In this document: positions 8,051-10,751 of the stretch, piece after piece | How the letters are laid out: each line of letters begins with the position of its first letter | Numbering within the stretch: the stretch's first letter is position 1 | DNA from: Chrysomallon squamiferum | Lineage: Eukaryota; Animalia; Mollusca | DNA: 64,000 nucleotides | Reading direction: 5' to 3' | Assembly (NCBI GenBank): GCA_012295275.1 | Contig: CM022676.1 | Location: forward strand, 15,190,001 to 15,254,000 | The notes under the pieces: generated by a model | What the model was told of the DNA's origin: nothing | The model's database searches: none | Seen by the model: the letters and a program-made list of their open reading frames with translations, nothing else | Made by a program: the position numbers and the translations under genes

Positions 8051-8265
8051 TTAATTTTCGTATCTAATTTTTATTACAGTTCTACCATTCTTTGACGTAA
8101 ATGACAGGGTTGGTTTCGGATTTTTTCCAGAGCTCTTGTTCCGGACCGTAATTTTCCAGTCACCAATTTTGCCCGTGTATCCTAGGAGTCCGTTCTTACC
8201 GCTGATTGGCCTGCTACCCTCCACTTTTAGTTTACTGTAGTCACTTGAAGCTGCAGAGTAACCAC
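8051..8265 (-). CDS. Exon 2 (terminal) of secreted toxin-like prepropeptide
   Basis: Acceptor ttttattttatattttaaag|GT at 8266/8265, phase 1. Open frame GYSAASSDYSKLKVEGSRPISGKNGLLGYTGKIGDWKITVRNKSSGKNPKPTLSFTSKNGRTVIKIRYEN* ends at TAA 8053-8051; AATAAA at 8006-8001. Confidence 0.75.
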
Positions 8266-8659
8266 CTTTAAAATATAAAATAAAACGATAAACAAAACAA
8301 AAATATTAAGAGAAAATCCAAATTTATGTGCATGTCTCTATGTGTGTTTGTTCGTGTATTTAAATATTTGTGTTTGTTAATATCACTTTTTAAACCGCAA
8401 CGAAAAGTTGAAATATGAACACTCTAAACTTAAAAAAACGTTTCACCTTGAAACAGAAAGAAGTAGACGTATTTCACCTTGTTTAGAGTACTGTATTGTC
8501 ATGCGCCTTCCACTCCATGTTTTCTTTCTGAATTTTAATGTGCGAAGAAGGGCTTTCCAAACATATTTCCTCAAATAACGGAGCCTCTTGCTTCTAGTAA
8601 TTTCATTCTCTACCTGCCTCCTAACAGACCAAAGATCTTAACGTGAAAAAAAAATAATA

Positions 8660-8955
8660 ATAAAAATAAAATATATATATATATAATAATAATAATAATA
8701 ATAATAATAATAATAATAATAATAATAATAATAATAATAAATAAATAAATAAATAAATAAATAAATAAATAAATAATATAATGATAATAATTAATTGATG
8801 TTTTGTCTTATTAATAAACTCACACACACAGATAGAGAAAGAGAGAGAGAGAGAGAGAGAGAGAGAGAGAGAGAGAGAGAGAGAGAGAGAGAGAGAGAGA
8901 GAGAGAGAGAGAGAGAGAGAGAGAGAGAGAGAGAGAGAGAGAGAGAGAGAGAGAA
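8660..8955. repeat. Compound microsatellites (TA)n,(TAA)n,(TAAA)n,(GA)n in the intron of the prepropeptide gene
   Basis: Directly visible; similar clusters at 9205-9360, 10977-11080 and 11225-11460. Confidence 0.95.
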
Positions 8956-10537
8956 GATTTTGTCAACACCGGATTCCCTTGGGAGCAAAGAGCTACGCCG
9001 TTATATACAGAGTGACAGTTTATAAAGATCAAAACCACCAAAAAATTGAATATGTTTTATTACAAATGTTACAGTTAAATATCTAGCTGAGATTTGCCAG
9101 TGATTACGCGTTGTTTTGCCGATAAGTTGACCTGGTTGAAATGTTCACCATTTTATAAAAAAACTTCGTGTTTCTATTAACCCGCGGCAAAGTCTAAGTG
9201 TCATTTATTTATTTATTTATTTATTTGTTTATTATTATTATTATTATTATTATTATTATTATTATTATTATTATTATTATTTCTTTCAAAATATACAATA
9301 TATATATATATATATATATATATATATATATATATATATATATATATATATATATATATCTCACTTGGAAGTTGAAACTATTGACACATTTTGCCTCTAT
9401 TTTGTCCAAAGATGACTTGAACACGTTTTGCAGTCGGGCACCGAAATTATATTTAGTAATAAAAGTGCAAGAATAGCTGCTGACATGCCTTGTTTTTGTG
9501 TTAATAGCAATTGACAATCAACACAGGTATTGATTTTTGTTTTCTTTTTTAATTTGTGTACAAACTGAATTATCTCAGATGGACTGAAGAGAATGACATG
9601 GTAAAGATTAGAATTAAGAAACCCAGTATGCAGAGGTGAAGACTTGAGAAAGTAGGCTATTAGTAGTATTAAACAGACATAAGTATAACACTTTTCTTAA
9701 ATCATTTTATCACTTAAGCCATGAATGTGTATAAAATATGTTGTTAAAGTCCCTGTTTTATTAGATACATAACATGTATACATGTAGACATTTAATTTTA
9801 CCTTTGTGACAAATGATTGGTTATGTGTTATTGTCTCATTTTGCTTTGACAAAGTGTCACTTATCTGTCTAGAGATAAATCTTTCTCTGTACACAGTGGA
9901 TTTGTTGGAAAATCTTCTATTAATTTTGTTTTAGAAAGTTCGTTCTCTGATTGCGACCAGTTCAATAAGACAGTGAAAAGTGTGCGCCATACGTATTTTA
10001 TACAGATTTCTGCTTCTGACTCTAAATGAGTGTTTCAACACTAATAATAATTTTGTTCATTTAGTTCAGTATAGTAACTACAAGATGTATGTCATTATTA
10101 TTTGTTAAGCTTTCGAAGAATGACGATCATTTCACACCACATGGTAACCTAATTACGCGTAAACTGCCGTCAGTTTTTTCAGATGTGATCGTCCTTGGAA
10201 AATTGTTGACAAACTAAGTATTATATAACTTGTCTTTCTTTTTCTTATTTTCTGGAATTAACACCCGAAGTCCGAAGTGTACAATGAAATGATTTGTTAA
10301 TCATAAACTATAGGAAACAGTAGAGAGAAAAATGCATTACAGATATATAATAACAAAAAAAAAGAACTAAAATGCATATCCGAATTAGGCATTATATTTT
10401 CCATGACAGATTAAAGATAGCTTTTAGGAATTTCGCAAATTATATATCCTGAGGATGATAATGATGATGATGGTGATGGTGATGATCATAATGATAATGA
10501 TGATGTTTTACAGGAGAAGGAAATAAAACAAGCTCAC

Positions 10538-10751
10538 CCAGTTTCGGCTGGAATATTTTATCTCCAACTTTACTCGGGTGGATGATGTCTCGTTTAGAAA
10601 GCGACTTCGGATCAAAGCCGTGATTCTGTCCTGAGTGGCTTCTCTTCGACTCGACAGTCTCAATATCTGAGTCAAGCACCTGCACAGACTGGGCCAACGC
10701 TAATAGCAGACAAAGAAACGCTAAGACAAACTGAAAAGCGACTCCCTTCAT
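10538..10751 (-). CDS. Exon 1 of secreted toxin-like prepropeptide (signal peptide + pro-region with two KR sites)
   Basis: ATG in acaaagATG context at 10751. Hydrophobic signal MKGVAFQFVLAFLCLLLALAQS; ESKR and LSKR dibasic sites. Donor CTGG|GTGAGC at 10538/10537 is phase 1, matching exon 2. Confidence 0.78.

Follow-up and report, generated by a model that had tools for sequence, protein, structure and literature searches.

A gene predicted to consist of three exons lies on the minus strand at 8051 to 10751 of the window analysed here, a stretch of 64,000 nucleotides (nt) of the Chrysomallon squamiferum (Mollusca) genome (assembly GCA_012295275.1, contig CM022676.1, positions 15,190,001 to 15,254,000). 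The last 70 residues of its 195-amino-acid (aa) precursor match a domain homologous to the C-terminal domains, or tips, of bacterial polymorphic toxins, placed behind a predicted signal peptide, a propiece and a furin-type cleavage site. One copy of the gene is present within the 64-kb window.

Gene structure

All exon junctions were predicted from the sequence. In exon 1 (10538 to 10751), a predicted signal peptide at about residues 1-22 is followed by the greater part of the propiece, and the exon ends in a phase-1 donor (TGG/GTGAGC). The N-terminus is hydrophobic (Kyte-Doolittle 11-mer peak 3.3), and the signal cleavage site was placed by eye. Predicted intron 1 (8637 to 10537; 1901 nt, GT..AG) is rich in microsatellites. 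Exon 2 (8478 to 8636; 159 nt, with both ends in phase 1) contains the end of the propiece, the furin-type site RSKR (8584 to 8595, residues 86-89) and, from the predicted start of the mature chain at 8583, a cationic and moderately amphipathic N-terminal extension (8479 to 8583; 35 aa, net charge +12), which is a candidate membrane-binding or uptake module. Beyond predicted intron 2 (8266 to 8477; 212 nt, GT..AG), exon 3 (8051 to 8265) is preceded by a pyrimidine-rich AG and encodes the toxin-derived domain (one predicted helix and five strands) and the stop codon, with Ser at the position of a family Glu (residue 179, codon 8104-8102). Two AATAAA signals on the same strand lie 44 nt (8001 to 8006) and 53 nt (7997-7992) past the stop. 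Exons 1 and 3, the phase-1 donor, the AG acceptor, the open frames and an AATAAA about 45 nt past the stop had been reported in an initial annotation made from the letters alone, and all are present as described there.

The initial annotation joined exon 1 directly to exon 3 across a 2.3-kb intron, giving a 142-aa protein with an 88-aa mature chain after KR. Its arithmetic (17 K+R, 6 D+E, no Cys) was recomputed and agrees; the two-exon structure itself was not upheld, as exon 2 lies inside the supposed intron. A hidden Markov model (HMM) of five animal homologues detected there the segment 8637-8446 with 18.4 bits (E value 2.2e-4), as compared to 5.1 bits for the next best of 2528 six-frame window segments; profiles of the N-terminal part alone also put this segment first, at non-significant E values (0.3 and 0.097). 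Exon 2 is bordered by AG before 8636 and by CAAG/GTGAAA after 8478, starts with the D-L-W motif of the family and ends with a T-x-Q-Y motif, which precedes the toxin domain in the animal relatives. Its pairwise score against the five homologues was matched by 1 to 49 of 2000 shuffles per homologue. The exon 1 tail lines up, on inspection, with that part of the propiece which in the relatives immediately precedes the D-[IL]-W/K motif, and it did not fit the bacterial profile upstream of the domain (25.5% of the 60003 window 14-mers score equally), a misfit to the bacterial lead-in explained by the omission of exon 2 from the two-exon model. The family-type cleavage site is RSKR instead of KR, and the mature chain becomes 106 aa long with a different charge (26 K+R, 4 D+E, net +22, no Cys).

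The exons have a GC content at third codon positions (GC3) of 0.41-0.52, near that of the neighbouring animal genes (0.36-0.43). The locus had no real coverage in three RNA runs from the same study. One sequencing run contains the locus and looks like DNA, because its contigs span the intron-exon border; three of the four exon 3 variants displayed in it are synonymous (40 of 89 rows displayed). Many divergent contig variants at high depth were seen in this run over 7300-8640, such as a stretch of 126 nt at 8031-8156 with 10 differences; the sample may have been pooled, heterozygosity may be strong or there may be further paralogues. A dispersed repeat just downstream of the gene (7304-7573), 75% identical to 47684-47954, also had raised depth in it.

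Homology to bacterial toxin tips

Metagenome contigs were scanned for DNA that encodes R-x-x-S-S...P-T-[LI]-E...K-[IV]-R-Y, a pattern derived from the motifs named in the initial annotation and from the window. Of the 73 loci obtained, 34 had the match in frame, and most of these in-frame loci end 0-4 residues past the motif and have in common an upstream GG..A..DF..L...G..G.L.DG that was no part of the query. Twenty of the 34 were aligned as the seed of a bacterial HMM, with near-duplicates, fragments and two doubtful rows left out. Exon 3 scored 40.6 bits against this bacteria-only HMM, the next of 1874 six-frame segments 5.0, and none of 5000 shuffles reached its score. The N-terminal half of exon 3, which is outside the search pattern, scored 16.6 bits by itself (0 of 5000 shuffles). 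The toxin-like order of motifs proposed at the outset is thus far above chance. Against an HMM of 73 non-redundant bacterial sequences exon 3 obtained 40.8 bits (E value 5.8e-5 at 5.8e9 sequences), at the low edge of the leave-one-out scores of 11 bacterial members (42.3-98.2). The match extends over the whole domain, and the best pairs are 37-43% identical. In the ESM Atlas, 28 of the 30 nearest clusters to exon 3 were unnamed bacterial proteins (best 0.92), with a recognition score below the trusted level. The profile scores and shuffles demonstrate, at the level of sequence, the homology of the exon 3 domain to a family of bacterial polymorphic-toxin C-terminal domains.

A profile search with the window exon in the alignment, covering proteins of 154-2000 aa and the best 7997 candidates, found 61 proteins. 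Those with names came from bacteria and were Rhs, VENN-CdiA or hypothetical proteins, and Hint domains occurred in some of the rest; as the search was limited in size and candidates and all named matches were bacterial, further animal members may have been missed. In 62 of 62 proteins, at most 4 residues separate the end of the domain from the C-terminus, and the carriers are Rhs, VENN/CdiA and Hint proteins. The resemblance to polymorphic toxins proposed in the initial annotation stood with regard to homology and to the Rhs and CdiA carriers, and the MafB architecture that it also named was not seen. The window domain keeps an Arg, a Ser and a Thr, each present in 73 of 73 bacterial sequences. 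At its end it keeps the Lys (66 of 73), the Arg (70) and the Tyr (69). These counts, and those for the Glu and Gly discussed below, are to some extent circular, as most of these residues had served to select the seeds.

In 20 of 21 bacterial loci an open reading frame (ORF) lies downstream of the domain, and 17 of these ORFs align as one conserved family of about 130 aa (metagenome loci L152, L159, L167, L199 and 13 more). Such a family directly behind the toxin tips indicates a toxin-immunity organisation, and its members are candidates for an unnamed immunity family. There is no Pfam or NCBIfam model for either the toxin-tip family or the downstream family, and PDB sequences searched with profiles of both gave chance matches only. 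Exon 3, the 20 bacterial members and five animal homologues had no match in Pfam, Ntox47, Ntox17, Ntox21, Ntox30 and Ntox37 included, and the ESM Atlas scores of 0.79-0.82 for these five domains are leads only.

Exon 3 alone likewise had no NCBIfam or PDB sequence match. Two word-index protein searches with it found nothing real among 4 and 110 candidates, and searches of plasmids, phages, viral contigs and metagenome contigs with this single exon gave nothing real either. Three matching genome loci were rejected as chance, lying inside an unrelated 1034-aa ORF; 401 genomes of one phylum gave a single match with an internal stop, and a motif scan of viral contigs yielded 49 in-frame matches, none of which belongs to the family.

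Gastropod homologues and phylogeny

Searching 1.84 billion representatives with exon 3 by phmmer gave seven matches at E values of 0.001 or less, five of which are precursor-type proteins, four of them from named gastropods; the other two are long repeat proteins and were taken as chance. Gigantopelta aegis XP_041373492 is 51% identical (E value 7e-13), in a gene model without its N-terminus. Haliotis rufescens and H. cracherodii contribute seven cluster members, including three adjacent LOC numbers, and Littorina saxatilis (XP_070206393) and Bradybaena similaris (two proteins) contribute further relatives. One unnamed Logan protein was classed as animal on its layout. All named animal relatives are annotated as uncharacterised or hypothetical. 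Several near-identical paralogues were seen in Haliotis (P0094/P0100-P0105), and one of the two adjacent models in Bradybaena (P0099/P0106) has a different C-terminus without the terminal Tyr.

All 12 animal homologues match the 73-sequence bacterial HMM (E values 1.5e-11 to 5.7e-6) and have an R-x-[KR]-R-type site before the mature region. Mature regions are 108-138 aa long with a net charge of +14 to +25, mostly in precursors of 188-200 aa with a mature chain of 108-110 aa. A signal peptide, a propiece, a furin-type site, a cationic amphipathic stretch and the toxin domain form a common layout in four gastropod genera, so that the secreted, convertase-processed organisation first proposed for the window gene is, as predicted from sequence, shared by its homologues. 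The hydrophobic moment of the stretch between site and domain is 0.60-0.76 in five homologues as compared to 0.49 in the window protein. Judged by these comparisons, the gene is a member of a gastropod family and not a one-off.

A tree was built from 48 of 71 bacterial sequences and seven animal rows; it is unrooted and based on a short alignment. The animal rows form one group among the bacterial sequences, with a support of 94 in the SH-like approximate likelihood ratio test (SH-aLRT), and within it the window protein pairs with Gigantopelta (support 91). An earlier tree without the animal homologues had not placed the window gene, which has a long branch. The tree test graded the nesting of the animal group as neither shown nor rejected. 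The single animal group thus agrees with the suggestion of horizontal transfer in the initial annotation, in a tree that has no root and points to no donor. A direction from bacteria to snails is suggested by the broad bacterial range, with many architectures, as compared to the narrow animal range. An intron-bearing gene, an animal context and homologues in related animals were all found, as would be expected of a horizontally acquired, domesticated bacterial toxin gene, and one old bacteria-to-gastropod transfer is the likely origin, as far as the sequences tell.

Predicted fold

AlphaFold2 with an alignment of 21 rows modelled the exon 3 domain with a mean predicted local distance difference test (pLDDT) score of 92.7, as a helix (H2-12) followed by five strands. 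The predicted topology, a helix and then a meander of 4-5 strands, is BECR-like and agrees with the BECR core as given in section 28 of PMC3482391. A structure search with this predicted fold gave no significant match to solved structures; the single-sequence model had a pLDDT of 64, and fold searches from it were uninformative. As no structure match was significant, we can only infer RNase activity.

Genomic context

The window is animal DNA, with two ZNFX1-like helicase genes and Ig/FN3 exons. The tandem helicase genes (PF25396, AAA_11, AAA_12; 15438-22477 and 31052-38154, plus strand) are 94.7% identical over 4.7 kb, and an assembly gap of 200 N (28373-28572) separates them. Each copy shifts frame within the helicase region, near 17095-17150 (in an A-run) and near 33093-33106, and these changes may be assembly error or pseudogenisation. 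A 1.6-kb self-complementary element at 12587-14161 (91% to its own reverse complement) resembles a foldback element or a miniature inverted-repeat transposable element, and its arms also match 29263-30140. The Ig and FN3 exons at 54279-57077 (minus strand) belong to a gene like those of cell-surface receptors. No immunity-gene model adjoins the toxin-derived gene, and no bacterial delivery domain lies upstream of it.

Discussion

We lean, with modest confidence, towards the reading that this three-exon gene encodes a 195-aa precursor with a bacterial-toxin-tip domain, likely acquired in an old transfer, and that the product is likely a secreted, furin-activated antimicrobial protein. An animal that reuses a toxin tip which acts in the cytoplasm has two problems to solve: its own cells must be protected although there is no immunity protein, and the toxin must be delivered although there is no bacterial secretion machine. 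The layout of the gastropod family offers a testable answer to both. Directed by its signal peptide, the protein would leave the host cytosol, and the host could then do without a cognate immunity protein. A furin-type convertase would then cut at RSKR and free the 106-aa chain, in which the cationic amphipathic N-terminal stretch would replace the delivery part of bacterial Rhs and CdiA proteins and bind or cross microbial membranes. The toxin domain would attack nucleic acid, most likely RNA, by means of the conserved Arg/Ser/Thr/Glu/Lys/Arg/Tyr set. The fuller version of this reading is more tentative, and we consider it possible, though somewhat doubtful, that the family consists of Trojan-horse immune effectors, in which an early snail took the nuclease tip of a polymorphic toxin and fused it behind a leader of the antimicrobial-peptide type, so that an amphipathic helix freed by furin would carry an active RNase into the microbial cytoplasm in place of the machinery of type VI secretion (T6SS) or contact-dependent inhibition (CDI).

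The Glu of PTLE, present in 72 of 73 bacterial members, is Ser in the window protein, as had been noticed at the outset and was borne out by the alignment, and for this reason nucleic-acid attack may be weakened or lost in the window copy; one Gly found in 73 of 73 bacterial members is also missing. The copies of Haliotis, Littorina and Bradybaena, to judge from their residues, may still be capable of it. An alternative which we regard as rather unlikely, with the same origin and secretion, is that the enzyme activity has been lost at least in this species and that the product is a plain cationic antimicrobial or nucleic-acid binder. The change of Glu to Ser, the Asp of its closest relative Gigantopelta and the long branch of the window gene all speak for such a loss, as do the net charge of +22 over 106 aa and the exon 3 charge of +10 (bacterial mean +2.4, range -2 to +13). 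However, Arg, Ser, Pro and Thr are retained in the window protein together with Lys, Arg and Tyr at its end, and 11 of the 12 animal homologues keep the Glu, a conservation which exceeds the needs of a merely cationic peptide.

The target may also be eukaryotic rather than bacterial, such as fungi, protists, parasites or predators met via mucus, eggs or saliva, and we consider this improbable. Cationic amphipathic stretches are able to enter eukaryotic cells, and this counts in its favour. Some polymorphic toxins kill yeast and enter fungal cells, according to the accessible part of 10.1101/2021.10.19.465003. The bacterial ancestors, on the other hand, precede a conserved immunity-like gene, which suggests bacterial targets. 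That the 142-aa form with exon 2 skipped is the main product appears very improbable: skipping a 159-nt exon with phase 1 at both ends would preserve the frame and exon 1 offers two KR sites, but exon 2 has canonical ends, matches the family and restores its length and layout, and the exon 1 tail is unlike the sequence before the domain in bacteria. The two-exon form could be a minor skipped isoform, as far as its frame and phases indicate. The lack of Pfam, NCBIfam and PDB matches and the two empty single-exon word-index searches might speak for a chance resemblance, contamination from bacteria or a dead pseudogene, but this reading is largely refuted and hardly credible in view of the profile scores and shuffles, the three intact in-phase exons, the homologues on animal scaffolds of 25-95 Mb and a GC3 like that of neighbouring genes; introns, animal neighbours and RefSeq gastropod homologues likewise supported the earlier view of a real animal gene.

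The secreted toxin-derived antimicrobial reading offers a candidate function for uncharacterised genes of abalones, periwinkles, the vent snail and a land snail, and the analysis defines a widespread bacterial toxin with its immunity-like partner, for which Pfam and NCBIfam hold no model. The natural series of Glu, Asp and Ser among the snail copies lets the role of catalysis be tested directly.

Comparison with known systems

The bacterial PTLE/KxRY toxin tips resemble the window domain over its whole length and in its C-terminal position. In the window gene the place of the delivery domains is taken by a signal peptide, a propiece and a cationic extension, and further differences are its introns, the lack of an adjoining immunity gene and the change of Glu to Ser. 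A label such as STox, Ntox7 or BECR-Tox may already exist for the bacterial family: it may be one of the 22 BECR rows, given without sequences, in the S2 Table of PMC12994826, and the Ntox7 motif DGx+xhR in the relevant part of PMC3482391 is similar to its own. BECR RNase toxins such as CdiA-CT ECL/Ntox21 and the barnase-like five-strand group have, like the modelled window fold, an N-terminal helix and then a five-strand meander; CdiA-CT ECL is listed as a helix plus six strands (PMC9086364). As compared to these toxins, the window domain has no His and not the Asp/Asp/His/Lys site of ECL, and its structure scores are non-significant.

No published description of the gastropod family or its packaging was found in the open literature searched, also not by six gene or protein identifiers of the homologues, subscription literature being outside the scope, and the accessible parts of 10.64898/2026.09.18.752725, 10.64898/2026.05.10.723254, 10.1101/2021.10.19.465003 and PMC13189344 held no match to the family. 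The transfer of interbacterial toxins to animals is already known, and what seems new, not found in this literature, is the toxin-tip family and its prepro packaging in gastropods. At least 14 toxin domains transferred to metazoans, for example Ntox18 in Branchiostoma, CIDE and pierisin, are mentioned in the sections consulted of PMC3482391, and the biomphalysins of snails are another transferred toxin domain in the excerpt of PMC8047071. These are different domains, and the text examined in these sources describes no packaging of the prepro antimicrobial-peptide type.

Tick Dae2, derived from the T6SS toxin Tae2 and the best documented domesticated toxin of this kind in the literature consulted, is likewise an interbacterial toxin gene moved to an animal, with a predicted signal sequence and an antibacterial use, according to the available text of 10.1101/2020.04.10.036376. 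Dae2 is there a cell-wall hydrolase acting from outside, whereas the window domain is unrelated to it, would have to get into the cytoplasm of its target and has a propiece and a cationic extension. The big defensins and other mollusc prepro antimicrobial peptides, as portrayed in the part seen of PMC7203481, have the same order of signal, prodomain, dibasic furin-type site, membrane-seeking N-terminal part and C-terminal effector. The window protein differs from big defensins in having no Cys and no beta-defensin domain, no sequence similarity to them was found, and its C-terminal part is of bacterial toxin origin. The predicted precursor nevertheless has the sequence features of a prepro antimicrobial peptide, that is a signal peptide, a propiece, a basic cleavage site and a cationic mature chain.
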